Positions 849 through 29,713 of a DNA stretch of 29,713 bases are shown one piece after another (position 1 is the first letter of the stretch; every line of letters begins with the position of its first letter). The stretch lies in contig JAZLIA010000109.1 in NCBI GenBank assembly GCA_045617125.1, positions 1-29,713 of the forward strand, written 5' to 3'. The notes under the pieces were generated by a model. The model had not been told where the DNA came from and made no database searches. It saw nothing but the letters and a program-made list of their open reading frames with translations. The translations under genes were made by a program, and so were the position numbers. The DNA comes from Clostridia bacterium. Lineage in GTDB: Bacteria; Bacillota; Clostridia; Christensenellales; Aristaeellaceae.

Positions 849-2195
849 TTACAGGTTTTCCCCGTTTGTTTCGATCACGCTTTTGTACCACCACGCGGAA
901 TCCTTCACGATCCTTTCCTGCGTATCATAATCCACATATATCATTCCAAAGCGCTGGCTGTATCCGCTGGACCATTCAAAGTTATCCATCAAACTCCACT
1001 GATAGTATCCCAGCACATCCACCCCGTCCTCAGCTGCTTTTTTCAGACAGATCAGGCAGCGGTGGAGATAGTCTTCCCTTTGGGGATCATGCACCTTTCC
1101 ATCCAGATGTACAAGATCCAAACCGGCAATTCCGTTTTCTGTAATGATAAATGGCAGCTTGTAACGCTCATACAAAAACTTTGGTCCCCAATACAGCGCT
1201 TCCGGAACCAGATACCAGCCAAAGGCGGATCTGGGATGACCTGGTTTCTTCATCACATGTTCCGGTCCATTCTTTCCAGAGCGGATGTACTCACCGAAAT
1301 AGATATTCTGACAGTAGAAATCCAGCGGCTGGCAGATCACTTTCATATCTTCCTTCCAGGTTTTCGGAAGAAACTGTTCCCTTTGCTTCAGCCCATCCTC
1401 CGGATAGGTGCCAAGCACGACCGGATCGCTCATCCAGCTGACGCCAAAGGATGAATGCTCGCCGTTAAAATAGGCTTTTTTTGCGGCTTCAATGTCTTCA
1501 ACGCTGTTGGTGTAAGGGATCAGTGAAAAAGCGCAGGGCGCATAACCTACACGGATATCCCTGCAGGCAGAACGAATCTCTTTAACGGCCAGGCCGTGAG
1601 CCATCAGCAGATGATGGATCATCACGGTGATCTCCGCCTCGCTCTTTTTATATCCTGGAGCAAAATTTCCCATGGCGTATCCGTTTCCGATGATGCACTG
1701 AGGTTCGTTGAAGGTGATCATGTCCTTCACTCTGTCTCCGTAGCGGCGTGCGCAGAAAGCGGCGTATTCACGGAACCATTCCGGACTCTCATCGTTCAAC
1801 CAGGAGCCTTTCTTTTCCAGCGTCGAGGGATAATCCCAGTGGAAAAGGGTCATCATGGGGCGAATGTCGTATTTGAGCAGCACATCGATCAGCCGATCAT
1901 AGAACGCGGCTCCCTTCTCGTTTACCTTGCCGATCCCTTCAGGGAAAATACGCGGCCACGATACGGAAAAACGGTAGCTCTTCAAGCCCAGTTCGGCCAT
2001 GAGCTTCACGTCCTCTTCCATGCGGTGATAATGATCGCAGGCGATGTCACCCGTGTGTCCTTCAAAGATCGCATCGGGCTTTTCATGACAAAAATCATCC
2101 CAGATGCTCGGCCCCTTGCCGTCTTCGTTCCATGCGCCCTCAATCTGAAATGCCGCGGTCGCGGCGCCCCAGATAAAATCCTTTCTGAAACTCAT
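849..2195 (-). CDS. GH1 beta-glucosidase / 6-phospho-beta-glucosidase
   Basis: GH1 signatures are present: FIWGAATAAFQIEGA near the N-terminus, TFNEP (acid/base Glu) and ITENG (nucleophile Glu). I moved the start to the ATG at 2195 (MSFRKDF...), which is preceded by GGGAGGAA and a 4-nt spacer. The track start at 2267 lies inside the promoter. Confidence 0.9.
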   Translation of the reverse strand: MSFRKDFIWGAATAAFQIEGAWNEDGKGPSIWDDFCHEKPDAIFEGHTGDIACDHYHRMEEDVKLMAELGLKSYRFSVSWPRIFPEGIGKVNEKGAAFYDRLIDVLLKYDIRPMMTLFHWDYPSTLEKKGSWLNDESPEWFREYAAFCARRYGDRVKDMITFNEPQCIIGNGYAMGNFAPGYKKSEAEITVMIHHLLMAHGLAVKEIRSACRDIRVGYAPCAFSLIPYTNSVEDIEAAKKAYFNGEHSSFGVSWMSDPVVLGTYPEDGLKQREQFLPKTWKEDMKVICQPLDFYCQNIYFGEYIRSGKNGPEHVMKKPGHPRSAFGWYLVPEALYWGPKFLYERYKLPFIITENGIAGLDLVHLDGKVHDPQREDYLHRCLICLKKAAEDGVDVLGYYQWSLMDNFEWSSGYSQRFGMIYVDYDTQERIVKDSAWWYKSVIETNGENL

Positions 2196-2238
2196 ATCGT
2201 TCCTCCCGCTATGGCTGATAAATTGATCTCCTGTCTGC

Positions 2239-2267
2239 ATTATAGGGGCTATCGTCTGCTGTGTCAA
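2239..2267 (-). promoter_or_regulatory. sigma-A-type promoter of the GH1 gene
   Basis: Minus strand: TTGACA (2262-2267), 17 nt, TATAAT (2239-2244). Both hexamers are consensus, about 40 nt upstream of the ATG. Confidence 0.7.
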
Positions 2268-2312
2268 TGCGGTTTATTCTGTCCGGCTGTTTACGACAGG
2301 AGCAATGTTAAC

Positions 2313-2368
2313 AGAATAAAACAGCCCCGTTCCGATTCACAAGTAAATGTGAACCGAAACGGGGCTGT
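2313..2368 (-). terminator. intrinsic terminator after glgP
   Basis: Minus strand: acagccccgtttcggttcac / gtgaatcggaacggggctgt form a roughly 20-bp stem (two G-U pairs), followed by TTTTATT. It lies 17 nt after the glgP stop. Confidence 0.85.
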
Positions 2369-2384
2369 ATCCTGTTTCATATTA

Positions 2385-4808
2385 TCAGATGTGCCAGATA
2401 AGGTCGTTGTATTCCCGGATCGTTCTGTCACTGGAGAAGATGCCGCTCTTTGCGGTGTTGATCACAGCCATACGCAGCCACTTGTCCCGGTCGGCATAAT
2501 CCCGGTCCACTCTGCGCTGGGCCATGGAATAGCTGCCGAAATCCTTGAGAACGAAGTAAGGATCGGAGAAGAGCAGGTTGTGATAAATATCCTGCAGCGT
2601 GGCGGGGGCATCGGGGAAGAGCGTGCCGTCGATGATTTGCATCAGAGCCCGTCTGAGCTCGCCATTCGTTTCAAAAATGTGCATCGGGCTGTAGTTGCCT
2701 TCTTTATAGAGGGCGGATACCGTGTCGGCCCGCATGCCGAAAATGTAGATGTTGTCGTCGCCTACAGCGTCATAGATTTCCACATTGGCGCCGTCCATGG
2801 TGCCGATCGTGACCGCGCCGTTCATCATGAACTTCATGTTGCCGGTGCCGCTGGCTTCCTTGCCGGCGGTGGAGAGCTGCTCGCTCAGGTCTGCCGCGGG
2901 GATCAGGAATTCCGCGCTGGAAACATCGTAATTCTCCAGGAACACCACCTTCAGCATACGTTTGGCCCGAGGAGTGCGGTCGATCAGCTTGCTGATCGAG
3001 ATGATCAGGCGGATGATCTGTTTGGCCATATAGTAGCTGGGGCTGGCTTTGGCGCCAAAGATGAAGGTGCGGGGAGTCATTTCGTAGTTGGGATCATCCA
3101 TGATGCGGTTGTAAAGCACCAGGATGTGCAGGGCATTGAGCATCTGCCGCTTGTATTCGTGAAGGCGCTTGGCCTGAACGTCAAACATGAAATCCGGGTC
3201 CACACTCATCTTCTGCCGCTGCATCAGCATGTTGCTGAAGGCTTCCTTGTTTTTACGCTTCACCGTGTCAAATTCAGCCCGGAAAGCGGCGTCATCGGCG
3301 TAGGGGGTAAGGTCGTTCAGATACTCCGGTTCCTTTATCCATCTGTCGCCGATGGTTTCGAGCAGAAGGTGTTTCAGGTTGCGGTTGGCTGCCATCAGCC
3401 AGCGGCGATGGGTGATGCCGTTGGTGATCGAGCTGAATTTTTCGGGCATGACGCTGTAATAATCCCGGAAGGTATCCTGCTTGAGGATCTCACCGTGCAG
3501 CTGGCTCACACCGTTCACGGAATGGCTCATTGCCACGCACAGGTTGGCCATGTGCACCATATCGTAGGCCGTGACCGCCATGCCCGCGATGCGGGGATCA
3601 CACCCGTTGTTGAAATGATGGGCCAGACGCTCGCATACCCGGCGGTTGATTTCCTGAAGGATCATATAGATGCGGGGCACCACGTTTTTCATCATTTCCT
3701 CGGGCCAGCGTTCCAGGGCTTCGCTCATTACGGTGTGATTGGTGTAGGCGATGGTGTTGCGTACGATCAGGCTGGCTTCATCCCAGCCGAGGCCTTCTTC
3801 ATCGATCAAAAGCCTCATCAGCTCGGGAATGGCAAGGCCGGGATGGGTGTCGTTGATATGAATGGCCATTTTTTCCGGGATCAGGCGGAAATTGTTGCCG
3901 AAACGGCGCTTAAAATCCTTCAGAGCATACTGCAGTGTGGCACTGGTGAAAAAGTAGTGCTGCTTGAGACGCAGCTCGCGGCCTTCGTAGTGATTGTCAT
4001 CGGGATAGAGCACGCGGCTGATCACGGTGGCCAGGTCTTCCTCCTGCATGCTGCGCAGATAATCTCCGCCGCCGAACTGCAGAAGGCCTGTGGGGTTGGG
4101 AGATTTTGCGCGCCATGTGCGCAGGGAATTGACGGTGTCGTTGTCATAGCCGATCACGGGCATATCATAAGGAACGGCCAGAACCGTGCGGTAATCCTTC
4201 AGCTCGAATACCTGACGGCCATCTCTCACATTTTCATCGACCCGGCCATAGAAGTGCACCTCCATCGTGTCCTCGGGAGCGGCCACTTCCCACACGTTGC
4301 CGTTATCCAGCCAGCTGTCCGGAACCTCGACCTGCTGGCCGTTGATGATCCTCTGGCGGAACAGGCCGTATTCATAGCGGATGGTGCAGCCCATAGCAGG
4401 CAGCCCCAGGGAGGCCAGACTGTCCATGAAGCAGGCGGCCAGACGGCCCAGGCCGCCGTTGCCCAGGGCGGGTTCGGGTTCTTCCGTGAGTACCTGCCGC
4501 CAGTTGATGCCCAGCTCCTTCAGGGCTTCCACGTAGTTCTTGCTGCTGCACAGGTTGAGCATGTTGCAATAAAGGCTGCGGCCGGTAAGAAATTCCACCG
4601 ACAGATAATAGAGACGCTTTCCGGTGTAGCTTTTGTCCTTTTCGCGGGCAGCGGTCCACTTGAGCATGATCTGATCCCTCACCGTGGTGGCTACGGCATT
4701 GTAGATCTGCTGTGGGGTAGCATCATTCAGGGTGCGGCCATTATAGCGCTGCAGCTTGCTCACGATGGAGGTCTTGATGGATTCTTTATCGAAATGAGTG
4801 GTGGGCAT
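2385..4808 (-). CDS. glgP: glycogen/maltodextrin phosphorylase (GT35)
   Basis: About 807 aa, with the pyridoxal-phosphate site block EASGTGNMKFMMNGA and GT35-like sequence throughout. I moved the start to the ATG at 4808 (MPTTHFDKESIK), which is preceded by GGAGGA. Confidence 0.92.
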   Translation of the reverse strand: MPTTHFDKESIKTSIVSKLQRYNGRTLNDATPQQIYNAVATTVRDQIMLKWTAAREKDKSYTGKRLYYLSVEFLTGRSLYCNMLNLCSSKNYVEALKELGINWRQVLTEEPEPALGNGGLGRLAACFMDSLASLGLPAMGCTIRYEYGLFRQRIINGQQVEVPDSWLDNGNVWEVAAPEDTMEVHFYGRVDENVRDGRQVFELKDYRTVLAVPYDMPVIGYDNDTVNSLRTWRAKSPNPTGLLQFGGGDYLRSMQEEDLATVISRVLYPDDNHYEGRELRLKQHYFFTSATLQYALKDFKRRFGNNFRLIPEKMAIHINDTHPGLAIPELMRLLIDEEGLGWDEASLIVRNTIAYTNHTVMSEALERWPEEMMKNVVPRIYMILQEINRRVCERLAHHFNNGCDPRIAGMAVTAYDMVHMANLCVAMSHSVNGVSQLHGEILKQDTFRDYYSVMPEKFSSITNGITHRRWLMAANRNLKHLLLETIGDRWIKEPEYLNDLTPYADDAAFRAEFDTVKRKNKEAFSNMLMQRQKMSVDPDFMFDVQAKRLHEYKRQMLNALHILVLYNRIMDDPNYEMTPRTFIFGAKASPSYYMAKQIIRLIISISKLIDRTPRAKRMLKVVFLENYDVSSAEFLIPAADLSEQLSTAGKEASGTGNMKFMMNGAVTIGTMDGANVEIYDAVGDDNIYIFGMRADTVSALYKEGNYSPMHIFETNGELRRALMQIIDGTLFPDAPATLQDIYHNLLFSDPYFVLKDFGSYSMAQRRVDRDYADRDKWLRMAVINTAKSGIFSSDRTIREYNDLIWHI

Positions 4809-4867
4809 GACGGAAATCCTCCGGATATAATGATAAATGAAGATGATGCCGAAAAAGCACCATTCAC

Positions 4868-4896
4868 ATTTTATCATATCAGTCGTTTTGTTTCAA
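4868..4896 (-). promoter_or_regulatory. sigma-A-type promoter of glgP
   Basis: Minus strand: TTGAAA (4891-4896), 17 nt, TGaTAAAAT (extended -10, hexamer 4868-4873). Confidence 0.6.
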
Positions 4897-4937
4897 TGTG
4901 CAGACCGGGCCAATTCTGCCCTCTTCAGCCTGTTTTG

Positions 4938-6503
4938 TCAGTAATCGTAACCGAAATAGAAGCCGGGGTCGTTCAGCTGATATTTTTGTCCGTTAAAGAA
5001 GAACATGGAGCCGTAGGCCGGGAGGAACTCTTCTTCAGGATCGGAACCGTTTTCCATTTCAAGGTTCCACCAGCTTTCAAAGTCCGGTACTCCCAGAGCT
5101 GCTTTGGGAGTGAACCCGGAAAGATCAGTGGAGCCGTACCCGGACGCGCGGCAATCCAGCTTTACGGCAAGCTCATGCTGAATATCGCCTTCCACGGTCA
5201 CCATAAACACGGCTTCGCCGTTTACGCCTGTAAGGCGGCCCTGCGTGTCGGAGGTGAAAACGAGATCAACCTTTTTAAATCGGATCTGCTGCATCAGATA
5301 CATCAGGCTCTGGAAGGGTGTGAAACGCTCTCTCGCTGCGCGCAATTGATCGGGCATGGTGATCACTTCCGCCATTCCGTCCGCATAAATGTGCACTCCC
5401 AGGGCGTCTGGAACCTCTCTGGCCGCGGCCAGGTATTTTTCACACATGCCGCTCAGCATTTCCAGATAGGCCTGTTCCAGATTGGGGTCGCTGATCGGTC
5501 CGAACACAGCATATTCTGCTTCCCGGCTCATTTCTTCGCCGGTCACTTCCTGATAATAGGCGCGGAAAGCGGCGTCACGGTTATCCCAGATAAGCGGGAT
5601 ATCGTTGGACAGATGCAGATATTCTTCCTCTGTGTCAAAGGTGACGATGCTGCCGTCCTTCAGGATCACGGAATACATTTTTCCGGTAAGCCAGGCCTGC
5701 TGCTCCGTTTCGCCGATCTTGTCCGTCACGGTGAACCAGGCTTCCATTTCGGGGGTGTTTTCCTGATCGCTTGTCTGGATGCGATCCCAGAAATACTCCG
5801 GAAGAGGTTGCCCGTACATTTGTTCGTAGGTGTTGGCAAACAGGATGTCATAATCCTCATAGATCACCTGGGGTACCGGCTCCCAGTCATAGCCGACAAA
5901 CATGCCGGGATTGCCGTAACCCAGCTCCCAGGAAACCGAAGCGAGCATTTCCGGCAGAAATACCTGGATCGCTTCCGGAATGTTTTCTTCATCGGCCTTC
6001 AGCTGAACGCGGAGGGAACCGTCTTTAGTGCTTTCACTGCTTACGATGCCGGGAGAAAGCAGACTGCCCACATTGGCGATCACGGTGCCCGCGGCAGTGA
6101 AGGCTTCTTTCAGAATGCTGCTGCGGATCACGCTGCGGGACGGATCCACGCCGCAGTCGCCGTAATATTCCGTATCAAAATCGTGAAACCAGGCCAGACC
6201 GTCCTTTCCCAGCACGGAGTAGCCGCTGTGCCTGGTTGAACCGTCATGCAGGGGGGTGAACACGTTGATGCTCAGAAGCGAATCCAGCCCATCCTTGCTG
6301 ATTTCGGCTTCCACCTGCTTGAAGCTTTTTCCGTCCAGAAAAAACTCCGCCTTGCCGGAGAGGGATACGTTTTCCGTGTCGAAGGCCAGGGCACAGCCCT
6401 GCTTAAAAAGGGTGGAAAGTTCGGTCTCCGCCAGGGCAAGAGAAAGCACCATGAGCAGGATCCCCAAAGTGGTGAAAAGGGAAATTCGTTTTGCTTTTTT
6501 CAT
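4938..6503 (-). CDS. secreted protein of unknown function (about 521 aa)
   Basis: I set the start at the ATG at 6503 (MKKAKRISLFTTLGILLMVLSLALA ETEL). This gives a basic n-region, a hydrophobic core and an ALA-E signal-peptidase I-like site, with a GAGG SD 6 nt upstream. The track start at 6743 would overlap the upstream peptidase gene. I recognise no domain. Confidence 0.7.
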   Translation of the reverse strand: MKKAKRISLFTTLGILLMVLSLALAETELSTLFKQGCALAFDTENVSLSGKAEFFLDGKSFKQVEAEISKDGLDSLLSINVFTPLHDGSTRHSGYSVLGKDGLAWFHDFDTEYYGDCGVDPSRSVIRSSILKEAFTAAGTVIANVGSLLSPGIVSSESTKDGSLRVQLKADEENIPEAIQVFLPEMLASVSWELGYGNPGMFVGYDWEPVPQVIYEDYDILFANTYEQMYGQPLPEYFWDRIQTSDQENTPEMEAWFTVTDKIGETEQQAWLTGKMYSVILKDGSIVTFDTEEEYLHLSNDIPLIWDNRDAAFRAYYQEVTGEEMSREAEYAVFGPISDPNLEQAYLEMLSGMCEKYLAAAREVPDALGVHIYADGMAEVITMPDQLRAARERFTPFQSLMYLMQQIRFKKVDLVFTSDTQGRLTGVNGEAVFMVTVEGDIQHELAVKLDCRASGYGSTDLSGFTPKAALGVPDFESWWNLEMENGSDPEEEFLPAYGSMFFFNGQKYQLNDPGFYFGYDY

Positions 6504-9219: not shown

Positions 9220-9264
9220 TATGATATAGATGATCCGGTGAAATATCCGGGTCTGGGAGGGAAA

Positions 9265-11874
9265 ATGCTTAAGCTCAAAGGAATCAGAAAAGTGTATGAT
9301 GCGGGCGATACCCGCGTGGAAGCGCTCAAGGGCGTGGATCTGAACTTTCGCCGCAGCGAGTTCGTGGCTGTGCTGGGGCCTTCCGGCTGCGGAAAGACCA
9401 CTCTGCTCAACCTGATCGGCGGCCTGGACGGCTACACCGAGGGAGATCTGGTGATACGCGGCCGTTCCACCAAGGATTATAAGGACCGGGACTGGGACAG
9501 CTACCGCAACCATTCTGTCGGTTTTGTGTTCCAAAGCTATAACCTGATCCCGCACCAGACGGTGCTGCGCAATGTGGAGCTTGCTCTCACACTCAGCGGT
9601 GTGGGCAAGCGGGAGCGCCGCCGCCGGGCGGAGGAAGCCCTGAAAAACGTGGGTCTTGGCGATCAGCTTCATAAAAAACCCGCGCAGATGAGCGGCGGTC
9701 AGATGCAGCGTGTTGCCATTGCCAGGGCGCTGGTGAACGATCCGGAGATTTTGCTGGCAGATGAGCCTACCGGCGCACTGGACAGCGCAACCAGCGTGCA
9801 GGTGATGGACCTGCTGGCCCAGATCGCGAAAAACCGTCTGGTGATCATGGTGACGCACAACCCTGAACTGGCCGATCGGTATGCGAACCGCATTATCCGC
9901 CTTCTGGACGGAAAAGTGGTGGGAGACACCGCTCCCTATGACGGCAGGGATGAGGAAACGGAAAAGACAGGACGGGAAAAGAAGCCCTCGATGAGCTTCA
10001 CGACCGCTCTGGGCCTTTCTCTCAACAACCTGATGACCAAAAAGGCCAGGACCTTCCTTACCGCGTTTGCGGGATCGATCGGTATTATCGGCATTGCCCT
10101 GATCCTGGCGCTTTCCAACGGCGTGAACAACTATATTGATCGGGTGCAGGAGGACACGCTTTCCTCCTATCCGCTGAAGATCGAAGGCTCCACCGTGGAT
10201 ATGTCCGGCATGATGGAAGCCATGATGGGCGAGGTGAGCGAGAGCCGGGCGGAGCATGAGAATGACCGGGTGTATGCTAACAGCATCCTTACCCAGATGT
10301 TCTCCTCCATGATTTCCAATGTGACCGAAAATAACCTTGCCGCGTTCAAGGTCTACCTGGACAATGCCGACACGAAGGATCTGGTGAGCGACATCAAATA
10401 CGGTTATTCCACCCCGCTTACCCTGTATTACGACAGCCCGGATTACGGTATGGTGCAGGTGAACCCCTCCGCTGTGTTTTCCAACATGGGCATGCTCAGC
10501 GGCGCGGGTGTGGGCGCGATGAACAGCTTTTCTTCCTCCAGTCTCTTTTCTTCCGGAATGGAACAGATGGACGTGTGGGAGGAACTGATGGATAATGAAG
10601 CCCTGCTGAACCTTCAGTTTGACGTGGTGGCGGGGCGTATGCCGAAAAAATACGACGAAGCGGTGGTGATCGTCAATTCCCGCAACGAGGTCAGCGATTA
10701 TGCGCTGTATGCCCTGGGCCTGAGGGATCCTGATGAACCGGCCAGGATCATGCAGGAACTGGCGATGGGCAGGGAAATTCAGGCGGATACCTCTCTTTCC
10801 TACAGCTTCGATGAGATCCTGGGCCTCAACTTCACCTACATTCCCAGGGCGCTGACATATGAGCAGCAGGGAAATGTGTGGGTGGACCGCAGCGGCGATC
10901 CCGAATACCTGCGCAGTATGACGGAGCGGGGCCTGACGGTTCGCGTGGTTGGTATCATCCGCCCCTCTGATCAGGCTGTGGCGACCTCCACATCCTCCAG
11001 GGGCGGCATAGGTTACCTTTCCTCTTTGACCGAAATGGCGCTGGAAATGACGGCTCAGACCCCCGCGGTGAAGGCTCAGATGGAGCAGCCGGACCGTGAC
11101 ATTTTTACCGGCCTTCCCTTTGCCGGCAGCGAACCCGCGATGGATATGAGCACGTTTGACATAAGCACGCTTCCCGCGTCCCAGCAGGCGATGCTTCAGG
11201 GCATGAGCCCGGAGCAGATCCAGGCGCTGGCTGAAAAGTATATGAAGAGCAGTGTGTCGGAAAATACCTATAAGGATAATATGACCCTGCTTGGCATGAC
11301 CACGAGGGATAAGCCCTCCTCCATTTCCATTTATCCCAGAAGCTTTGAAGCCAAGGACACGATCATCAATATGATCGACCGGTATAATGAGCAGGCCGAA
11401 GAAAAAGACCGTATCCGCTACACCGATTATGTGGGCCTGCTGATGAGCTCGGTTACCACGATCATCAACGCGATCAGCTACATCCTCGTGGCCTTCGTTG
11501 CGATCTCGCTGGTGGTAAGCTCCATCATGATCGGCATCATCACTTACATCAGCGTACTCGAGCGCACCAAGGAGATCGGTATCCTGCGTGCCATCGGCGC
11601 CAGCAAGCGCGATATCAGCCGTGTGTTCAATGCGGAAACGCTGATCGAAGGCTTTGCTGCCGGGATCATCGGGATCGGTGTTACATTGCTGCTGGTGATC
11701 CTGGTCAACGTGATTTTGCTGGATCTTACCTCTATTGCCAACCTGGCAGGGCTGCCTGTGGAGGCTGCTGTCGCGCTCGTTGTGATCAGCATGGTGCTCA
11801 CCTTTATTGCCGGTCTCATCCCCAGCCGCATTGCCAGCAGGAAAGACCCTGTGATCGCGCTGAGAAGCGAGTGA
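9265..11874 (+). CDS. fused ABC ATPase / FtsX-family permease (MacB-type architecture)
   Basis: The N-terminal part has Walker [10 protein letters not shown], signature [14 protein letters not shown] and Walker [16 protein letters not shown] helix follows, then an extracytoplasmic domain of roughly 400 aa and a C-terminal FtsX-like 3-TM block ([19 protein letters not shown]). I set the start at the ATG at 9265 ([11 protein letters not shown]), after GGGAGGG. Confidence 0.88.
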
Positions 11875-11912
11875 CGGAAAATGACACCGATAACAGAAAC
11901 GGAGATAATCAC

Positions 11913-13709
11913 ATGGGAAAACTGATCGGTATTGACCTGGGAACCACCAACAGCTGCATGGCCGCTATGGAGGGCAGCGAAAAAATCATCATTCCCAACA
12001 GCGAGGGGGGGCGCACCACGCCTTCTGTGGTGGCCTTCACCAAGGAGGGAGAACGCCTGGTAGGCATGGCGGCCCGCAGACAGGCGGCTGTTCATCCGGA
12101 CAGGACGATCAGCTCCATCAAGCGTGATATGGGTACGGACCGGCGTGTTACGATCGACGGGCGGAAGTATACTCCCCAGGAGATCAGTGCGATGATCCTG
12201 CAAAAGCTGAAGATCGACGCGGAAGCGTATCTGGGTGAGCAGGTGACCGATGCGGTGATCACCGTGCCCGCGTACTTTACCGACAGTCAGCGCCAGGCTA
12301 CCAAGGACGCCGGACGCATTGCCGGGTTGAACGTGCAGCGCATCATCAACGAGCCTACTGCCGCGGCTCTGGCCTACGGGGTCGATAAGGAACAGGATCA
12401 GAAGGTGATGGTGTACGACCTGGGCGGCGGCACATTCGATGTGAGTGTGCTGGATATCAGCAGCGGTGTGATCCAGGTGCTGGCTACCGCGGGAAATAAC
12501 CGCCTGGGCGGAGACGATTTTGACGAATGCATCGTGCAGTATATTCTGGAGGCCTTCAAACGGGAGAACGGGGTGGATCTTAAAACCGATATGGCTGCGC
12601 TGCAGCGGGTGCGTGAGGCTGCTGAAAAAGCCAAGATCGAGCTTTCCGCCGCCACAGTGACCGAGATCAATCTTCCCTTTATCGCCCAAAAGCAGGGAAC
12701 CCCTCTGCATCTTTCCCTGTCGCTTACCCGGGCAAAATTCAACGAGCTTACCAGACATCTGGTGGATTCCACGCTGGGACCGGTGCAGCAGGCTCTGAGA
12801 GACAGCGGCCTGAGCGCCAGCCAGTTGGGCAAGGTGCTTCTGGTGGGCGGAAGCACCCGCATTCCCGCCGTGCAGGAGGAAGTGCGGAAACTGACCGGAA
12901 AGGAGCCCTTCAGAGGGATCAACCCGGATGAATGCGTCGCGATGGGCGCCTGTCTGCAGGGAGGCGTGCTTACCGGAAAGGTGGGCGGGCTGCTTTTGCT
13001 GGATGTGACCCCGCTTTCCCTTGGCATCGAAACCCTGGGCGGCGTCACCACCCGTTTGATCGAACGCAACACCACATTGCCTGTCAAGCGCAGTCAGGTG
13101 TTTACCACAGCAGCCAATTTCCAGACCTCGGTGGATATTCACGTTCTTCAGGGCGAAAGACAGATGGCTGACCAGAACAAAACTCTGGGCCGTTTCCGGC
13201 TCACCGGCATCAAACGGGCGCTGAGAGGCATTCCGCAGATCGAAGTGACCTTTGCGATCGACGCGAACGGCATCGTGAATGTTTCCGCCCGGGATTTGGG
13301 TACCGGACATGCTCAGGAGATCACCATCACGGCTTCCTCCAATCTGAGCCGGGAGGAGATCGACCGTGCGGTGCGGGAAGCCCAGCAGTATGCTGAGGAG
13401 GATGCCCGCAGGAAGGCCGAGGCAACTGCCAAAAACGATATGGAGCAGATGGAGTACCGGGCGTCGCTTCTCATGAAAAAGCTGGACAGGGGAGAAAAGC
13501 AGGAGCTGGCCGAGGCCCTTCAGCGTGTGAAGCACGCGAAAAAGAGCAAGGATGACGGCCGTCTGGCGGATGCCAACCGGGAGCTTCAGTATCTGCTGGA
13601 TCGACTGGAGGCCAAGTATGCCGCTCAGGGCGGGAACGACCCCGAAAACAGCGGCAGCGCGGATAAGAACAGCGAACAGGAGTTCTATGACGCGGATTTC
13701 AGCAATTGA
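11913..13709 (+). CDS. Hsp70 family chaperone, DnaK paralog in a non-canonical context
   Basis: Motifs [36 protein letters not shown], the linker [14 protein letters not shown] and a helical lid are all present. I set the start at the ATG at 11913 ([10 protein letters not shown]), after GGAGA and a 7-nt spacer. There is no hrcA or grpE nearby. Confidence 0.92.
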
Positions 13710-13742: not shown

Positions 13743-14561
13743 ATGTTTGGTTTTGTGACGGCGGATGTGGAAAAGCTGTCTCAGGAGCAGAAGGAAGTTT
13801 ACCGTGCCTTTTACTGCGGAGTGTGCCGGTCGCTCAAGGCCCGTCACGGAACGGCATGCGAGCTTGCTCTTTCCTACGACATGGTGTTCCTTACGATGCT
13901 GCTGATGAGTGTATACGGGGAGGAGCCGGAGGAGCATTTTGCCCGCTGTGTGCCTCATCCCGGAAAGCGTCACCGGTTTTACAAAAGTGAACTGATCGAT
14001 TATGCGGCGGATATGGGACTTATTCTCATGTACTATAAGCTCATGGATGACTGGACGGATGATCGGGACCCTGTCCGTTATGCCGGTAGCCGTATGATCC
14101 TGAGAAAGGCACGGGGGGCTGAGAATAAATGGCCCCGGCAGGCGGAGAAAATAAAGCAGTGCCTGAAGGAGCTTTCCGAGGCTGAAAAACGGGATGAAAG
14201 ACAGATCGATGTGCCTGCCCGCATATTCGGGGCGCTGATGGGGGAGCTGTTCGTTTACAGGGAAGATGGGTTTTCCCCGCTTTTATGGGAAACAGGCAGA
14301 TGCCTTGGCATGTATGTGTATCTTTGCGACGCTGCGCTGGACTTGAAGGAGGATCTGAAAAAGAAGCACTATAATCCCTTCGCAGGCTACGGAAGCAGCG
14401 GTGCATACGAAAGCCTGTGTGCGGTAATGGGACAGTGCAGCGCGGTTTATAGGCAATTACCGGTTGACAAAAACAAGGCGATTCTGGATAATATTCTGTA
14501 TTCAGGCGTGTGGGGCCGATGGAATCTGGCCCACGCACCCCGAAAGCAGGGTAAAAAATGA
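13743..14561 (+). CDS. DUF5685-like protein (uncharacterised; Cys cluster plus Asp-rich motifs)
   Basis: The N-terminus MFGFV....YRAFYCGVCRSL....LSYDMVFL matches my recollection of the DUF5685 family. It also has CVPHP, DDWTDD and DLKEDLKKKHYNPF. The SD is AAGGGGA. Confidence 0.75.
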   Translation: MFGFVTADVEKLSQEQKEVYRAFYCGVCRSLKARHGTACELALSYDMVFLTMLLMSVYGEEPEEHFARCVPHPGKRHRFYKSELIDYAADMGLILMYYKLMDDWTDDRDPVRYAGSRMILRKARGAENKWPRQAEKIKQCLKELSEAEKRDERQIDVPARIFGALMGELFVYREDGFSPLLWETGRCLGMYVYLCDAALDLKEDLKKKHYNPFAGYGSSGAYESLCAVMGQCSAVYRQLPVDKNKAILDNILYSGVWGRWNLAHAPRKQGKK

Positions 14562-14616: not shown

Positions 14617-15393
14617 TTGAGCGATCCGTATCAGGTGCTTGGTGTGTCCCGCACAGCCAGTGAAGAGGAGATCAAGCGCGCCTACAGGAATCTGGCTAAA
14701 AAATATCATCCCGATCTGAATCCAAATGATCCCACTGCAGCCAAGAAGATGGAAGAGATCAATGCTGCCTATGATGCGATCAAATCCGGCAAGGCTGACA
14801 GCTACAGCTACTCCGGCAATTCCGGAAGCGGGAACCCCTACGGCAATCCGTATGGCAACCCCTACGGCAACGGTGGGAACAGCGGCTATGGCGGATATCA
14901 GAACGGGTATCAGAATAGCGGTTATTCCGGAAACGACCGTTATGCCGATCAGGAGGGGGATCCCTTTGGCGGCTTTGGTCCTTTCGGCTTTGGCCCCTTT
15001 GGCTTTGGCGGCTATCAGAGACGGCCGCAGTATCAGCCATCGGGGAGGTACCGCGGCGCCTGGCAGTATGTTCAAAGCGGTTCCTATCCGGATGCCATGC
15101 GCATCCTGAACAGCATATCAGACCGGGATGCGGAATGGTATTACGTTGCCGCGCGGGCACAGCAGGGGATGGGCAATGAAGTGACCGCGCTCAATTACGC
15201 CCGCACTGCGAGCCAGATGGCGCCGGATAATGAGGTGTTCCGTCAGTTTATGCAGGAAATGACGGGAGAGGGTGAAAGCTACCGTCAGCAGCAGAGCGGA
15301 ATGGGATTTTCCGCGTCGGGGGTATCCCGGATCTGCATCGGTTTGTGCCTGGCCAACATGTGCTGCCGCTATGGCGGCTGTTTCTTCTGCTGA
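14617..15393 (+). CDS. J-domain protein with G/Y/N/F-rich linker, TPR-like region and Cys-rich C-terminal tail
   Basis: The start is a TTG at 14617, 8 nt after AAGGAGGA. The J domain reads DPYQVLGV...[15 protein letters not shown] (HPD motif). It has no CxxCxGxG zinc-finger domain. The C-terminus is [20 protein letters not shown]. Confidence 0.88.
14830..14871 (+). repeat. in-frame 12-nt tandem repeat encoding (GNPY)x3
   Basis: ggg aac ccc tac / ggc aat ccg tat / ggc aac ccc tac / ggc aac, inside the J-protein gene. Confidence 0.9.
14965..15012 (+). repeat. in-frame repeat encoding [16 protein letters not shown] (G/F region)
   Basis: Repeated ggc ttt ggY ccY ttY units, inside the J-protein gene. 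Confidence 0.85.
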
Positions 15394-15435: not shown

Positions 15436-15876
15436 ATGGGACAGAAATTCAGGATGTGGCTGATCCGCGTGATGGAGGGCCGCTATGGCACCAGAGGAAT
15501 AGATCCGTTCAATCGTTTTCTGATCATTGCTTATTTTGCGCTTACGGTTTTGAATCTGATCCTTGCCGGAGTGCTTGGAGGCACGCTTCTGCTGCCCACG
15601 GTGCTGAGTTGGGCAGCGTTCATCCTGTTTCTGTTTCGTACTTTCAGCCGCAACATTCCAAAGCGTGAGATGGAAAATGAAAAATACCTCGCTGTTTCCC
15701 AGAATGTGAAGCGTTTTTTCCGCCGTCAGGTGAACCGGGTGAAGGAAGTTAAGACCCATCGCTACCGTAAATGTACTCACTGCAAAGCGGTGCTGCGCCT
15801 GCCGCGCAAAAAGGGCACCCTGAAGGTGAACTGCCCCCGGTGCAAGCAGGAATTTTCGGTCAAAATATGGTTCTGA
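15436..15876 (+). CDS. membrane protein with C-terminal zinc ribbon
   Basis: The SD is AGAGGAGG, 7 nt upstream. Two hydrophobic helices are present (FLIIAYFALTVLNLILAGVLGG, LLPTVLSWAAFILFLF), followed by a basic linker and then CTHC...(16 aa)...CPRC. Confidence 0.8.
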   Translation: MGQKFRMWLIRVMEGRYGTRGIDPFNRFLIIAYFALTVLNLILAGVLGGTLLLPTVLSWAAFILFLFRTFSRNIPKREMENEKYLAVSQNVKRFFRRQVNRVKEVKTHRYRKCTHCKAVLRLPRKKGTLKVNCPRCKQEFSVKIWF

Positions 15877-15880
15877 TGAT

Positions 15881-15922
15881 ACAGTAAAAGGAGCCGCATG
15901 AAGGCTCCTTTACTGTATTTTA
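15881..15922 (+). terminator. intrinsic terminator closing the Hsp70 operon
   Basis: acagtaaaaggagcc / ggctcctttactgt form a 14-bp stem with one bulged A and a 7-nt loop, followed by ATTTTA. It starts 5 nt after the stop codon. Confidence 0.7.
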
Positions 15923-25278: not shown

Positions 25279-27447
25279 TCAACGGCTGTTTTGTTCGCTT
25301 TCCTGTGACTTGACGAGCTGTTCAAACAGACCATGCTGGTTCATTAATTGGCTGTAGGTTCCTTCTTCTACGATCCCGCCGTTTTCCATCACGATGATCC
25401 GATCACAATCTTTGATGGTAGATAGACGATGCGCGACCATGATGACGGTCGCTTTGGTCTTGCAAATCTCCTCCATCACCGCCGATTGGGTGTTGTTATC
25501 CAGAGCGGATGTCGCCTCATCCAGAATCAGCAGCGCAGGTTTTCGGACAAACGCTCTTGCCAGCAGCATACACTGCTTCTGACCGCCGGAAAACCCGCCG
25601 GACATCGTTTCGGATATGATGGAATCAAGCCCGTCCGGAAGCGCGGAGATCACATCGGCGATCTGTGCCTTTTTCAGTGCTTCCCAAACCTCTTCATCGG
25701 AGATGTCATCATTCCCTAAGGTGATGTTGTAACGTACAGAGCCCGGCATCAGCGAGCTGTACTGTGCCAGAAAGCCAATGCGCCTGTTCACGAAACGCAT
25801 ATTCAGGGTCTCGATCGGATGATCGTCGAGATATACCGTACCTGAAAGCGGCTTGTTGATCCCGACGATCATGCTCAGCAACGTACTTTTGCCGCAGCCG
25901 CTCCTGCCTGTGATCCCGATGATTTCGCCGGGCGTGGCCGAGAAATTGATGCCTTCGATGCTGAACGAATCAGAAGGATTGTAGGAAAAATTGATATTTT
26001 CAAGTTTGACGCTGCCACGAATATTTCTGAGGATCTTCTGATCCGGGCTGATCTCGCTTTCCGCCTGGAACAGCTTCGAGATGTGCCGGACATATTCCGA
26101 TGCTCTGAAAGACGCGGAAAACAAATCGGTGGCTTCCAGTGCCGCGGCGGACATGATGGCATAGCTCGCGCTGAACGCGATGAAACCAGCCGCGGAAACA
26201 TGGCAGTACCAGGCTGTGATATAGAAGACCGCGACCGAAATGGCCGGCACAAAGATGCCTTTCAACTTGACGATGAGCGGAAGGTCAAAAGAATATTCAA
26301 GCCGTCTTTTGAAGATCGAAGCCCATTTGACATAGATCCGCTTTTCCGCGCCAGCGGTCTTGATCTTCTGGATGCCCTGCAAAGTGGAGAAAATGTTGTT
26401 GCGAAGCTCGGAATCCGTTTCCATTTCCATTTTCAGGATCTTCGCGTAAATTCTCTCCGATATTCCGATCCAGGACAGCTGAAGCGCCATCAACAGAAGC
26501 CCTGCCAGTGCCAGAGGACCGGACATGTGGATCATCTGCGGAATATTGACCAGTGAAAAAGCCAGGGTGACCGATGTGCAGAAAACCATTTCCACAATGA
26601 TCTCGGCAAGCGTTCTGGCGTGACGGACATAGGTGGCGACACGTCCGCTCTTGTTCTTCCGGAAAAAGGAGACCGGAAGGCACAACACTCTCGCGATCAC
26701 CGAGATCTGGGACTGTTTCGTGATCCTGAGCCTGTACAGATCCACCGTGTATTTTTTGACAGCGTTCAGGAAGCAGCGGATCAGCCCGGCAGCCGTATAG
26801 ATAAAGATCGCGGAAACGATCAGCGGGATCGCGGTGCTGCCGGCCGGAACATATTCCTTCAGAACGGTATGGCTGACAGAGGGCGTTGCCAGGTTCAGCC
26901 CCGCCACCAGCGCAGACAGAATACAGATCACAGCCCAGAATTTGCGCGGAATGATCTTCAGAATATATCTCAGAAAACCCGGAAAACCGTCGACTTTCCA
27001 GTCCAAAGGCCGATAGACCGCGTAACCGGCAGCGCCGAGCCTGACTTTGCCTGTCAGATGGCTTTTTTTGTTTTGCCCGGGGCGCAGAAAGCTGTGACCG
27101 ATTACCGCGTTTGTGATCAGGATCGGAGAACCGTTGTCCAGAAAGCCGATGATGAAATCGGTGCTGTCTTTCCATCCGGGATCCGTCATATCGATCTTTT
27201 CATACAGGATCCCGCAGGGTTCAAAGGTATATTCCAGCATTTCATCCGGATCATCCGTATCATATTCGTTGCCGGGAGTCAATCCATAGGCGTTCAGAAT
27301 ATACCGGAGGATATACCGAAGTCCTTCCGTCCTGTCACAGGCTTCCTGATCGGGAGACAGTGTGCCGAACAGGGCGGCATCGGCTTTCTGTACTGCTTCT
27401 TCGTCCTGGGCGGCCCGCCTTTTGATCGTTTCTGTATAAAGTCCCAT
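25279..27447 (-). CDS. ABC exporter (TMD-NBD half transporter) with a ~160-aa N-terminal accessory domain
   Basis: A six-TM exporter domain is followed by Walker A GRSGCGKST, signature FSGGQKQ, Walker B LILDEATSALD and H-loop VAHRLST. The N-terminal domain has no Cys/His peptidase motifs. The start lies 3 nt after the upstream stop and has a GGGAG SD. Confidence 0.88.
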   Translation of the reverse strand: MGLYTETIKRRAAQDEEAVQKADAALFGTLSPDQEACDRTEGLRYILRYILNAYGLTPGNEYDTDDPDEMLEYTFEPCGILYEKIDMTDPGWKDSTDFIIGFLDNGSPILITNAVIGHSFLRPGQNKKSHLTGKVRLGAAGYAVYRPLDWKVDGFPGFLRYILKIIPRKFWAVICILSALVAGLNLATPSVSHTVLKEYVPAGSTAIPLIVSAIFIYTAAGLIRCFLNAVKKYTVDLYRLRITKQSQISVIARVLCLPVSFFRKNKSGRVATYVRHARTLAEIIVEMVFCTSVTLAFSLVNIPQMIHMSGPLALAGLLLMALQLSWIGISERIYAKILKMEMETDSELRNNIFSTLQGIQKIKTAGAEKRIYVKWASIFKRRLEYSFDLPLIVKLKGIFVPAISVAVFYITAWYCHVSAAGFIAFSASYAIMSAAALEATDLFSASFRASEYVRHISKLFQAESEISPDQKILRNIRGSVKLENINFSYNPSDSFSIEGINFSATPGEIIGITGRSGCGKSTLLSMIVGINKPLSGTVYLDDHPIETLNMRFVNRRIGFLAQYSSLMPGSVRYNITLGNDDISDEEVWEALKKAQIADVISALPDGLDSIISETMSGGFSGGQKQCMLLARAFVRKPALLILDEATSALDNNTQSAVMEEICKTKATVIMVAHRLSTIKDCDRIIVMENGGIVEEGTYSQLMNQHGLFEQLVKSQESEQNSR

Positions 27448-27450
27448 TTT

Positions 27451-29583
27451 TCAACTCCCACTGTCCACCAGCTGTCTGAATATACCGTCTCTGTTGTAGA
27501 GCTCCGACGGCGGTCCTTCCTCGGCGATTCTGCCTTTTTCAATAACCAGAACTTTGTCGCACAGCATCACAGTGGAAAGCCTGTGCGCGGCCAGGACGCA
27601 GACGCCCGCGTTCCGGTTCCGGATGGCCTCAAAGACTTTTTTCTCCGTAATGACGTCCAGTGCGGATGTGAATTCATCCAGGATCAGGATGGTCGGTTCC
27701 GCGGAAAGCGCTCTCGCCAGCGCCAGCCGCTGCAGTTCTCCGCCGGAGAAATTGCAGCCGTGCTCCTGGATCATGCCGTCATATCCATCCGGAGATGAGA
27801 TGATCCTCGGATGGATCTGCGCGTCTCTCGCGGCCAGGATCATTTCATAGTCTTCAATACAGTCATCCCACAGCTTCAGGTTGTTCCGCACCGTATCAAA
27901 ATAGGTCATGACATCCTGATCCACCGTGGCGATTGAAGCGTGCAAAACCGCGGTGGGGATCTCTCCGATCGGTTTTCCGTCGATCAAGATACTGCCGGAT
28001 TCCTGCGTATACAGGTCTGACAGCAGTTTCAGGATCGTGCTTTTGCCTGATCCCGTTTTTCCGACAAGAGCAACGATCTCGCCCTTTCTGACAGTGAAGG
28101 AAACATCCTTGAGCGCGGGTTCGTCGCCCTTGTTATAGCGGAATGTGACATGGTCAAACACAATATCTCCGGAAAGCTTGTCCGGTTCTTCCGGAATCGC
28201 GACCTCTCCGCGGGATTCACGCTGCAGGATATCATCCGAACGGTCGATGTTTGCTTTGATTCTCTGATAGTCTTTCATCATAAGAAGGGACTTGCGGACG
28301 TTTTTTTGCAGCTGGTTGACCAGGGTCTGGAACACCGCCATCACGCCGAAGGAGAAGCTACCGTTGATCATCATAAAAGCGCCGATGAACAGAAGGGCTC
28401 CCTGCGCGAAAAAATCGCTGAGATCGTTCAGCAGCGAAGCCAGCGCATTCAGCTTCAGCAAACTTTTCTGTTTATTGTCATAGTCGGTTTCCGACCGGCA
28501 CCAGACCTTGAAAAAGCTTCTTTCCGCACCGGTCGTTTTAATGGTTTCGATCAGGTTGATCCCGTTCAGCGTGTTGGATGTCACGTTGCTCTGCAGGACA
28601 GAAAGGCTTCGGGAAACGACCCCGACCCGGGAGACAACGGCCATATACAGGACAACGGAAATGATCTCCACGGCCAGACAGATGGCTGCCATGACCGGAT
28701 CAAACAGAAACAGAACAAGCAGGAAAGCAAAGATCAGGATCAGGTCAATAAGCTTCGATATAATATCACTGAGAAATCTTTTACCCAGCGTGATATTATC
28801 CATCGTCCGGTCGATCAGATCTCCGTTAATATGTGTTTCAAAAAAATGCATGGGCAGGCTGAGGAGCTTTTTGTACAGCGCGCTGCTCGACCGCGCCGCG
28901 ATTTTCCGGCTGCTCCCGAAAACGATCAGCGGCGTGATGACGGCAGCCGCGATATCCAGGACCGCGATGCACGCGATCACAGCCATGAGAAAGGGTGCCC
29001 GGGCGGCGTTGCCTTCGGACAGGCACTCATCCATCATTGCCCTGGAAGCAAAAAGCATACCGACGGTTGCTCCCGCGGAAAGGAGATAAAGCAACAGAAG
29101 AACAATGCAGTCTTTTTTATTTTCCCTGAAGCGACGGATAACAGGCGCGAAAAAACTTTCCGGCTTTCCCTCCGGCGCAAAGCCTTCCGCGGGAGTAAAT
29201 ACGATCGCCGTACTTCCCTCAAGTTTCTTTTCAAACGCTTCCCCGGTGATGTTGTATCTGCCGTAGCTCGAGCTGTTCAGACAGATCTTCCCGTTTTTGT
29301 ATCCGGTAACGATTTCATAATATCGTCCGGAACGGATCACGACCGGTGTATTCTGAGCCCGGATGATGTCGGGCGCCGGATTCCGGATAACCTCCGCCGA
29401 AAGCCCGAAAGCCGCACCGGCCGCGATCATCTGTCTGACCGATGTATTGTTGCGTGACGCAAGGCATTCCTGGCGGATCATTTCCGCCGATGGATACTTT
29501 TTATACCATGCCAGGATCATCGCGAGGGTCGCCATGCCGTTCTCCCCGGTATGAAGCTGCATGATCAACGGTACTTTATACAT
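27451..29583 (-). CDS. ABC exporter with N-terminal C39 peptidase-like domain whose catalytic residues are substituted
   Basis: The N-terminus YKVPLIMQLHTGENGMATLAMILAWY aligns by eye with the C39 block Q.....ECG..CLAMIL, with Asn in place of the catalytic Cys. A 6-TM domain follows, then Walker A GKTGSGKST, signature FSGGELQ, Walker B LILDEFTSALD and H-loop AAHRLST. I set the start at the ATG at 29583, which overlaps the upstream gene's stop (ATGTATAA). Confidence 0.85.
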   Translation of the reverse strand: MYKVPLIMQLHTGENGMATLAMILAWYKKYPSAEMIRQECLASRNNTSVRQMIAAGAAFGLSAEVIRNPAPDIIRAQNTPVVIRSGRYYEIVTGYKNGKICLNSSSYGRYNITGEAFEKKLEGSTAIVFTPAEGFAPEGKPESFFAPVIRRFRENKKDCIVLLLLYLLSAGATVGMLFASRAMMDECLSEGNAARAPFLMAVIACIAVLDIAAAVITPLIVFGSSRKIAARSSSALYKKLLSLPMHFFETHINGDLIDRTMDNITLGKRFLSDIISKLIDLILIFAFLLVLFLFDPVMAAICLAVEIISVVLYMAVVSRVGVVSRSLSVLQSNVTSNTLNGINLIETIKTTGAERSFFKVWCRSETDYDNKQKSLLKLNALASLLNDLSDFFAQGALLFIGAFMMINGSFSFGVMAVFQTLVNQLQKNVRKSLLMMKDYQRIKANIDRSDDILQRESRGEVAIPEEPDKLSGDIVFDHVTFRYNKGDEPALKDVSFTVRKGEIVALVGKTGSGKSTILKLLSDLYTQESGSILIDGKPIGEIPTAVLHASIATVDQDVMTYFDTVRNNLKLWDDCIEDYEMILAARDAQIHPRIISSPDGYDGMIQEHGCNFSGGELQRLALARALSAEPTILILDEFTSALDVITEKKVFEAIRNRNAGVCVLAAHRLSTVMLCDKVLVIEKGRIAEEGPPSELYNRDGIFRQLVDSGS

Positions 29584-29713
29584 TTTTATACATATTGTGG
29601 TACAGATGAACAAGGCTGACATAGCCAAGCGATTTCAGTTCGCTGTAGGAAGCCCTGTACTGTGCCTTTCCCCATTTCTCTGTCAGCACATAACGCGCGC
29701 AGTGCTGGATCCA
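29576..29713 (-). CDS. 3' end of an unidentified gene, translationally coupled to the ABC exporter; 5' part lies outside the window
   Basis: The minus-strand frame is open from the window edge: WIQHCARYVLTEKWGKAQYRASYSELKSLGYVSLVHLYHNMYKNV, with the stop at 29576-29578. It overlaps the next start codon by 8 nt. I recognise no family. Confidence 0.45.
   Translation of the reverse strand, partial: WIQHCARYVLTEKWGKAQYRASYSELKSLGYVSLVHLYHNMYKNV

Follow-up and report, generated by a model that had tools for sequence, protein, structure and literature searches.

The DUF5685 gene and its J-protein partner

The window analyzed here is the whole stretch of 29,713 nucleotides from contig JAZLIA010000109.1 of a Clostridia bacterium. 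It encodes a protein of the DUF5685 family and, directly downstream, a J-protein with a cysteine-rich C-terminal tail. Structure prediction and profile comparisons indicate that the DUF5685 protein very probably adopts the class I isoprenoid-synthase fold and is related to the enzymes of that superfamily. Best supported, in our view, is the claim that DUF5685 represents a new, divergent branch within a known superfamily and that its gene partnership is likewise new and conserved to a striking degree. The two genes and the tail are located as follows.

13743..14561, + strand: DUF5685 gene, 272 amino acids, predicted class I isoprenoid-synthase-fold protein (open reading frame and translation, PF18937, AlphaFold2 model, Foldseek)
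14617..15393, + strand: J-protein gene, 258 amino acids, TTG start; J domain with HPD motif, G/Y/N-rich linker, TPR-like helical domain and Cys-string tail (Pfam DnaJ, E 6e-21)
15325..15390, + strand: Cys-rich hydrophobic C-terminal tail of the J-protein, residues 237-258, six Cys, candidate acceptor (tail statistics)

The open reading frame of the DUF5685 gene begins with ATG, and an AAGGGG Shine-Dalgarno-like site lies 9 nt upstream. The protein matches Pfam DUF5685 (PF18937) over residues 1-260 of 272 (E 3.3e-83; 279.6 bits against a gathering cut-off of 26.7), and no model in the NCBIfam scan names it. Homologues account for 1998 matches in a protein database clustered at 90% identity. A profile search of 1.84 billion representatives returned 6353 clusters at 50% identity with E ≤ 1e-3, or 4566 with E ≤ 1e-10. 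The family is found in Faecalibacterium, Lachnospiraceae, Oscillospiraceae, Clostridium and Dehalobacter, among others. DUF5685 is a widespread family in Clostridia, and the system to which it belongs is widespread in both gut and environmental Clostridia. Our literature search for DUF5685 and PF18937 returned a single mention of DUF5685, inside a list, none of PF18937, and no functional study.

The original prediction, made from the sequence of the window, described the downstream gene as encoding a J-protein that ends in a cysteine-rich tail, and this is what we find. The protein matches Pfam DnaJ (PF00226), its H31-P32-D33 motif is invariant in 36 homologues, and six Cys lie within residues 237-258. 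The TTG start is preceded by a Shine-Dalgarno site (GAAGGAGG). Among 114 distinct tails, the last 30 residues contain a median of six Cys and are nearly free of charged residues; Cys makes up 19.8% of these positions, compared with 0.6% of the preceding domain. The final residue is Cys in 72 of the tails (63%), the tail consensus is C-x-x-L-C-L-A-N-L-x-C-x-x-C, and C240 is nearly invariant. On our reading of the sequence, the tail appears too short, and too often broken by Arg or Asn, to form an ordinary transmembrane helix. The family amounts to a bacterial cysteine-string J-protein, with the Cys-rich hydrophobic tail as its defining feature. The literature search gave no description of bacterial cysteine-string J-proteins, and a protein search with the C-terminal domain of the window J-protein gave no candidates.

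The pairing of the two genes was examined in both directions. In the 80 genome loci found with DUF5685, the J-protein gene is always directly downstream and on the same strand (80/80); the median distance between the two genes is 29 nt, and in some loci they overlap. For the reverse comparison, 80 metagenome loci were chosen by the J-protein C-terminal domain alone. Sixty-nine of these have at least 1.5 kb of upstream sequence, and in 65 of the 69 DUF5685 is encoded immediately upstream of the Cys-tail J-protein. The arrangement is also present in metagenome-assembled genomes labelled Spirochaetes (L032, L051). No fusions of DUF5685 to the J-protein occur among the 270 homologues listed. This reciprocal conservation of the gene neighbourhood strongly supports the functional link that had been suggested from the adjacency of the genes in the window.

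Conserved residues of DUF5685

Conservation was assessed in a set made up of the window protein and 149 representatives, all mutually less than 50% identical (n = 150). Translation of the gene reproduces every residue that the original prediction had named, namely both acidic motifs, C25xxC28, C39 and C69xxH72. The features of the protein, with helix limits taken from the predicted structure described below, are the following.

13815..13826, + strand: C25-G-V-C28, one half of a putative Cys3-His metal site, in helix 14-35 (C25 and C28 in 149/150 each)
13947..13958, + strand: C69-V-P-H72, second half of the putative metal site, in the turn of the beta-hairpin 63-81 (C69 in 150/150, H72 in 131/150)
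14046..14063, + strand: first Asp-rich motif D102-D103-W-T-D106-D107, of the DDxxD type, at the C-terminal end of helix 83-107 (conservation, hhalign)
14328..14378, + strand: second acidic motif D196-A-x-x-D200-x-x-x-D204-x4-(R/H)209-Y210-N211-P212, in helices 178-199 and 201-206 (conservation, profile register)

In the window protein, the first motif reads Y97-Y-K-L-M-D102-D103-W-T-D106-D107 (DDWTDD, residues 102-107). Residues 196-212, which form the second motif, read DAALDLKEDLKKKHYNP, and with its flanks the motif is L194-C-D196-A-A-L-D200-L-K-E-D204-L-K-K-K-H-Y210-N211-P212-F213. Conservation of the Asp residues, a check that had been proposed together with the original prediction, is nearly complete. 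D106, D196, D200 and D204 are present in all 150 members, as are C69, G189, Y193 and G255, and D102 is present in 149, as are C25, C28 and Y24. E148 follows with 148/150, then D46 and N211 (147/150 each); position 107 is D or E in 142/150, and D103 is retained in 127/150. By a rough estimate from Asp frequency, a few in every hundred proteins of this length would contain a lone DDxxD by coincidence, and such a motif would be unremarkable by itself; the Asp motifs of DUF5685 are meaningful because they are conserved. Degenerate versions of them were not seen among the 150 diverse members.

The proposed N-terminal Cys/His cluster persists in reduced form. C25, C28 and C69 are invariant or nearly so, and H72 is replaced by R, N, K or S in the remaining members, leaving 13% of the family without the fourth ligand. 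C39, which had been listed with the cluster, is Cys in just 8/150 members and falls in no conserved site, and we rejected it as a metal ligand. The putative Cys3(-His) site could hold a Zn whose role is structural, stapling the inserted beta-hairpin to helix 1, or alternatively one that activates a thiolate.

Predicted fold and relationship to isoprenoid synthases

An AlphaFold2 model of the DUF5685 protein, built from a 42-sequence alignment, has a mean predicted local distance difference test score (pLDDT) of 92.9 and a predicted template modelling score of 0.90. The model is helical except for a single beta-hairpin at residues 63-81, much as the original prediction had guessed. When it was compared with the PDB using Foldseek, the top 50 matches were, without exception, proteins of the prenyl and terpenoid synthase type with the class I isoprenoid-synthase fold, which supports the fold that had been conjectured. 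They include MoeN5 (best, E 1.2e-3), FPPS, GGPPS/CrtE, HexPPS, OPPS and SPS. Most have a probability of ~1.0, template modelling (TM) scores of 0.45-0.60 and 280-340 alignment columns, spanning nearly the whole protein.

The predicted structure has the all-alpha topology of class I enzymes, and it displays two further features of the superfamily, a DDxxD at the C-terminal end of a helix and a second metal motif on an opposing helix. In the model, the helices of the second motif (178-199 and 201-206) come four helices after the DDxxD helix (83-107). The spacing from the D helix to the H helix in class I enzymes is known from the family topology, and the four-helix separation of the modelled motifs would correspond to it.

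Profile-profile alignments are weak yet score above shuffled controls. An hhalign comparison of DUF5685 with a single IspA sequence gave a probability of 0.07. A low-diversity CrtB profile gave just P 0.02, and therefore more diverse profiles were built from annotated plasmid genes and database matches (10 polyprenyl synthases and 17 squalene/phytoene synthases). In local alignments, a 150-sequence DUF5685 profile matched the polyprenyl synthases with P 6.4e-4 and a probability of 28% (residues 166-252 on IspA 192-291) and the squalene/phytoene synthases with P 2.7e-3 and a probability of 11% (residues 158-209 on CrtB 138-185). As a positive control, the two synthase profiles matched each other in the same region with P 1.9e-6 and a probability of 89.5%. 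The real score against the polyprenyl-synthase template was 33.4, compared with 15.0 for the reversed profile and 19.2 for the best of 30 column shuffles; the corresponding values for the squalene/phytoene-synthase template were 29.3, 14.5 and 23.3. Global alignments (hhalign -glob) gave a meaningless terminal alignment and were dropped.

Extended alignments (mact 0) are colinear across the whole protein for both families. In these, D102D103--xD106D107 aligns with moderate posterior confidence to the first aspartate-rich motif of IspA (DDlpamDD) and to DDvID of CrtB. D196/D200 align to the DDxxD of the second aspartate-rich motif (SARM) of the polyprenyl synthases, D196/D200/D204 to the N..D..D of CrtB, and (R/H)209-Y-N-P to the R-x-Y-L-P of CrtB. 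In a search of PDB sequences with the DUF5685 profile, the third match (E 2) was Sat1646, a class I diterpene synthase (PMC9814573), and it places D196/D200/D204 on the N-x3-S-x3-D NSE/DTE triad of that enzyme. The profile comparison that had been suggested as a check on the fold therefore speaks for it in part: the scores exceed those of the reversed and shuffled controls and the motifs are in register, but the probabilities stay at 11-28% and no Pfam isoprenoid family is matched.

The best structural matches of the DUF5685 model are MoeN5 and the trans-isoprenyl diphosphate synthases (FPPS/IspA, GGPPS/CrtE, OPPS/IspB; PF00348). DUF5685 shares with these enzymes the order of the helices, a 'D' helix that ends in DDxxD and an 'H' helix that carries another acidic motif. 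Unlike them, it has DAxxDxxxD rather than DDxxD as its second motif, it is shorter (272 amino acids, with ~94 residues between the motifs), and it does not have their conserved basic residues for binding isopentenyl diphosphate (IPP). It also has an inserted beta-hairpin and the Cys3-His site, which are missing from MoeN5 and the trans-isoprenyl diphosphate synthases. DUF5685 accordingly does not show the features of a PF00348 member, which are a hidden Markov model (HMM) match, two DDxxD motifs and the IPP-binding Lys/Arg.

At the level of motifs, DUF5685 is closest to the squalene/phytoene synthase family (CrtB, CrtM, HpnC/D, SQS; PF00494), a resemblance that the original prediction had pointed out. 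'YykxxDDWxD' of DUF5685 resembles 'YawCRxxDDivD', 'AxxFGxLmgE' resembles 'VAGvVGlMma', and 'LGrFIYLmDAxxDLxxDxKxxRYNP' resembles 'LGxAfQLTNIlRDIxeDxxxGRxYLP'. The triad spacing D/N-x3-D-x3-D is common to both. This resemblance holds residue for residue, with weak statistics (P 0.003, probability 11%). The Y-N-P of DUF5685 is one residue nearer the triad, however, the signature Arg residues are not conserved, and the genomic context is unrelated to carotenoid or hopanoid genes. Of the characteristics of PF00494, an HMM match and two signatures, DUF5685 lacks the former and follows the latter only in outline. DUF5685 is a separate, very divergent and previously unassigned branch of the superfamily that belongs to neither named family.

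Other genes of the module

The DUF5685 and J-protein genes are part of a tight same-strand run of five genes in the window (ABC/FtsX, Hsp70, DUF5685, J-protein and membrane protein), followed by a terminator-like hairpin.

9238..11874, + strand: fused ABC ATPase and FtsX-type permease, 878 amino acids, an occasional neighbour (Pfam ABC_tran, FtsX; 7/80 loci)
11871..13709, + strand: Hsp70/DnaK-type chaperone, 612 amino acids, an accessory member of the cluster (Pfam HSP70, E 7e-222; above the NCBIfam DnaK cut-offs)
15436..15876, + strand: small membrane protein, 146 amino acids, with a C-terminal CxxC...CxxC zinc ribbon, the third conserved member of the module (weak zinc-ribbon/IBR Pfam matches)
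15887..15911, + strand: terminator-like hairpin followed by a T run, just past the last gene of the module

The zinc-ribbon protein has an N-terminal GRYG-type segment and hydrophobic, likely membrane-spanning segments, as read from its sequence. In 46/80 genome loci its gene lies no more than 3.5 kb away on the same strand (18 upstream and 28 downstream), and most metagenome loci contain it as well. The Hsp70 gene is adjacent in 12/80 genome loci, and in the window neither grpE nor hrcA lies beside it. The stop codon of the ABC/FtsX gene overlaps the start of the Hsp70 gene, and the order ABC, Hsp70, DUF5685 and J-protein recurs in two other loci (L001 and L003). Other neighbours in the genomes compared are lineage-specific housekeeping genes (BrkB/YihY, FakA, Asp23, a histidine kinase and ABC exporters).

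A sigma-70-like promoter match at 14464-14492 (+ strand; 11/12 positions; TTGACA, 17 nt spacer, GATAAT) falls inside the 3'-terminal part of the DUF5685 gene, ahead of the J-protein gene. It may act as an internal promoter or may have arisen by chance.

Proposed function

The assignment of the fold is well supported and that of a substrate is circumstantial; the ligand, the chemistry, the acceptor and the cellular role are what we infer. That DUF5685 is an enzyme that uses a prenyl diphosphate seems probable. It would bind an allylic prenyl diphosphate, most plausibly farnesyl diphosphate (FPP) or geranylgeranyl diphosphate, the diphosphate being held by a Mg2+ cluster on the DDxxD (D102/D103/D106) and the D196-x3-D200-x3-D204 triad. 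FPP is generally present in bacteria as the primer for undecaprenyl diphosphate. DUF5685 would ionise the bound prenyl diphosphate, and the resulting carbocation would be captured by at least one Cys thiol in the C-terminal Cys-string tail of the J-protein. DUF5685 is nearly always encoded just upstream of the Cys-tail J-protein, so it may attach a lipid to this tail. The lipidated J-protein would be held at the membrane beside the zinc-ribbon membrane protein, and its HPD J-domain would recruit DnaK/Hsp70, perhaps a dedicated copy in some genomes, to membrane-proximal clients. The model as a whole, with a Mg2+-dependent prenyltransferase that S-prenylates the J-protein tail and so yields a lipid-anchored co-chaperone, is one that we advance tentatively and with considerable reservation.

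The precedent to which the original prediction appealed is a real one. ComQ, PalQ and ChrPC are class I fold enzymes of the trans-isoprenyl diphosphate synthase (trans-IDS)-like type that prenylate a ribosomal peptide encoded beside them, and PalQ requires its acceptor residue at the peptide terminus (PMC13290415, PMC10853753). By analogy with ComQ and PalQ, the gene of the candidate acceptor lies beside that of DUF5685 (80/80, reciprocal 65/69), and the candidate tail is C-terminal, usually ending in Cys. The systems differ in the nature of the acceptor, which for ComQ and PalQ is a secreted signal peptide or a ribosomally synthesized and post-translationally modified peptide and here would be a chaperone co-factor of 190-300 amino acids. 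Enzymes of the ComQ/PalQ type have a conserved Gln just before the SARM, used for Trp (PMC13290415). In DUF5685, by contrast, no Gln of this kind is conserved: the residues ahead of D196 are the invariant Y193, L194 and a position that varies. When the acceptors are compared by their described features, the J-protein tail is nearly without Trp (1.4%), in contrast to the Trp acceptor of ComQ and PalQ.

A second likeness, again by analogy, is to the lipidated J-proteins of eukaryotes, which include the farnesylated Ydj1/DNAJA1 and plant J2/J3 (PMC10939075, PMC5769771) and the palmitoylated cysteine-string protein DNAJC5 (PMC4447612). In these, a C-terminal Cys or Cys string carries the lipid that places the co-chaperone on membranes. 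The bacterial J-protein appears similar in having an N-terminal J domain and 4-9 Cys within ~25 hydrophobic residues. The eukaryotic modifying enzymes, alpha/alpha-barrel CaaX prenyltransferases and DHHC acyltransferases, have folds unrelated to DUF5685. The alpha/alpha-barrel fold of the CaaX-type farnesyltransferase and geranylgeranyltransferase is absent from the top 50 Foldseek matches of DUF5685, and all that is shared with these enzymes is a putative Zn site, together with J-protein tails that frequently terminate in C, CC or CxC. If true, an S-prenylated J-protein would be a convergent bacterial counterpart of farnesylated Ydj1/DNAJA and of the palmitoylated cysteine-string protein, a parallel that we regard as doubtful.

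The superfamily placement suggests a chemistry for DUF5685 that can be tested, and the pairing with the J-protein does the same for its substrate. Should the tail be prenylated, bacteria would join the organisms with protein S-prenylation, and Cys would be added as an acceptor class for class I fold peptide prenyltransferases, for which Trp is the only acceptor known so far. Prenylation would also show how some bacteria tether the Hsp70 system to the membrane, and it would provide a small (272 amino acids) soluble enzyme for in vitro protein lipidation. If instead the product is a lipid or terpenoid, the family would represent unrecognised isoprenoid chemistry in anaerobic Firmicutes. It is possible, though somewhat unlikely, that the module represents the first native bacterial protein S-prenylation, in which a class I enzyme, possibly with thiolate activation by a Cys3 Zn site, would act on a dedicated Cys-string J-protein to give a lipid-anchored Hsp70 co-chaperone.

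Evidence against the proposal and alternative explanations

Several observations count against prenylation of the J-protein tail. Protein S-prenylation is not known to be native to any bacterium. All characterised trans-IDS-like peptide prenyltransferases modify Trp and not Cys (PMC13290415). Near the gene pair there is no conserved gene for a CaaX-protease-like (CPBP) protein, a methyltransferase or an isoprenoid-pathway enzyme. Four of the metagenome loci (L115, L116, L117 and L121), all of human-gut origin, encode the Cys-tail J-protein next to the membrane protein but lack a neighbouring DUF5685 gene, and there is none within 4 kb on either side (e.g., L116, 3095-4348). These four look like one lineage, which may have lost DUF5685 or may encode it at another place in its genome. 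The Cys3-His site, with four protein ligands, looks structural. It may also lie far from the mouth of the active site, because the topology puts it before the N-terminal end of the DDxxD helix.

Other points bear on the enzyme itself and on its placement in the superfamily. Conserved basic residues usually help to bind the diphosphate, and DUF5685 has few of them: across the 150 members, position 190 is K or R in 89% and K206 is K or R in 83%, and the window protein itself has M190 and H209. The Foldseek E values are modest, from 1e-3 to 5e-2 with none below 1e-3, at root mean square deviations of 6-8 Å, so that the match, plain as to its kind, is a remote one. Pfam and NCBIfam scans of the DUF5685 protein and the 42 aligned members (E ≤ 10) returned only DUF5685, so that the Pfam isoprenoid HMMs (polyprenyl_synt PF00348, SQS_PSY PF00494 and the terpene synthases) matched 0/42. 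The search of PDB sequences with the DUF5685 profile gave nothing significant, and the hhalign probabilities are low.

As an alternative, DUF5685 could be a prenyltransferase or terpene synthase of the class I fold whose substrate is a small molecule or membrane lipid and not the J-protein. The J-protein, Hsp70 and zinc-ribbon protein would then have the task of assembling the enzyme, positioning it or regulating it, or of handling its hydrophobic product. Such an enzyme, too, fits the fold and the invariant Asp motifs. None of the best Foldseek matches, the chain-elongating synthases and MoeN5, modifies a protein, and the substrate that MoeN5 prenylates is a lipid-linked intermediate. Squalene/phytoene synthases and terpene cyclases have a second motif of the D/N-x3-D/S-x3-D/E type, as DUF5685 does, and the position before D196 is variable, with no Trp-recognition Gln of the ComQ/PalQ type (PMC13290415). 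On the other hand, this explanation accounts neither for a constant partner whose only family-specific feature is its Cys-string tail nor for the near-obligate reciprocal adjacency (80/80, 65/69), and other biosynthetic or isoprenoid genes are not conserved in the neighbourhood. We regard it as rather unlikely.

DUF5685 could also have no enzymatic activity and serve a specialised J-protein/Hsp70 system as its dedicated client or adaptor, or as a partner that binds a ligand. Such a system might resemble HscB/HscA and IscU, with the Cys3-His site and the Cys-string tail handling a metal or Fe-S cluster, or the tail might dock in the isoprenoid-like cavity. IscU has a metal site of three Cys plus one further ligand, comparable to the putative site of DUF5685. 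A partner role of this kind is consistent with the DnaK-type Hsp70 that, without grpE or hrcA, shares the operon in the window and in 12/80 loci, and with the three invariant or nearly invariant Cys and mostly conserved His of DUF5685. It also fits the Cys-rich tail of the J-protein and the scarcity of conserved basic residues for diphosphate binding, and the short intergenic gaps, with some overlaps, would suit stoichiometric partners. However, five Asp, all invariant or nearly so, fall where each of the class I families compared holds its catalytic Mg2+ cluster, which is hard to explain without diphosphate chemistry. The 150 diverse members show no decay of the motifs of the kind seen in pseudo-enzymes, and the top 50 Foldseek matches include no fold similar to IscU-type scaffolds. 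A non-enzymatic role is in our view quite improbable.

Finally, the resemblance could be fortuitous, with DUF5685 a generic helical bundle whose Asp stretches have nothing to do with isoprenoid chemistry and whose matches reflect helix packing, a reading that would fit Foldseek E values of just 1e-3 to 5e-2 at 6-8 Å, hhalign probabilities of 11-28% and the lack of an HMM-level match to any isoprenoid family, but is very improbable given that all 50 top structural matches come from one superfamily, that comparisons with polyprenyl, phytoene and diterpene synthases independently put the same residues on metal-binding motifs, that the real hhalign scores exceed every reversed or shuffled control, and that no residues of the family are better conserved than those of the motifs.

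Remaining genes in the window

The remaining genes of the window are ordinary chromosomal ones, among them dnaX, murG, pheST, glycogen phosphorylase and GH1. A 1547 amino acid open reading frame at 1596-6239 (+ strand) has no family match. It runs antisense to two real genes, those of GH1 (849-2267, - strand) and glycogen phosphorylase (2385-4877, - strand), and for this reason was discarded as spurious; we consider it an artefact of G+C-rich sequence. A similar antisense open reading frame of 809 amino acids overlaps the Hsp70 gene. Two adjoining genes at 25279-29628 (- strand) encode ABC exporters, one of which has an N-terminal peptidase C39 domain of the bacteriocin/peptide-exporter type.

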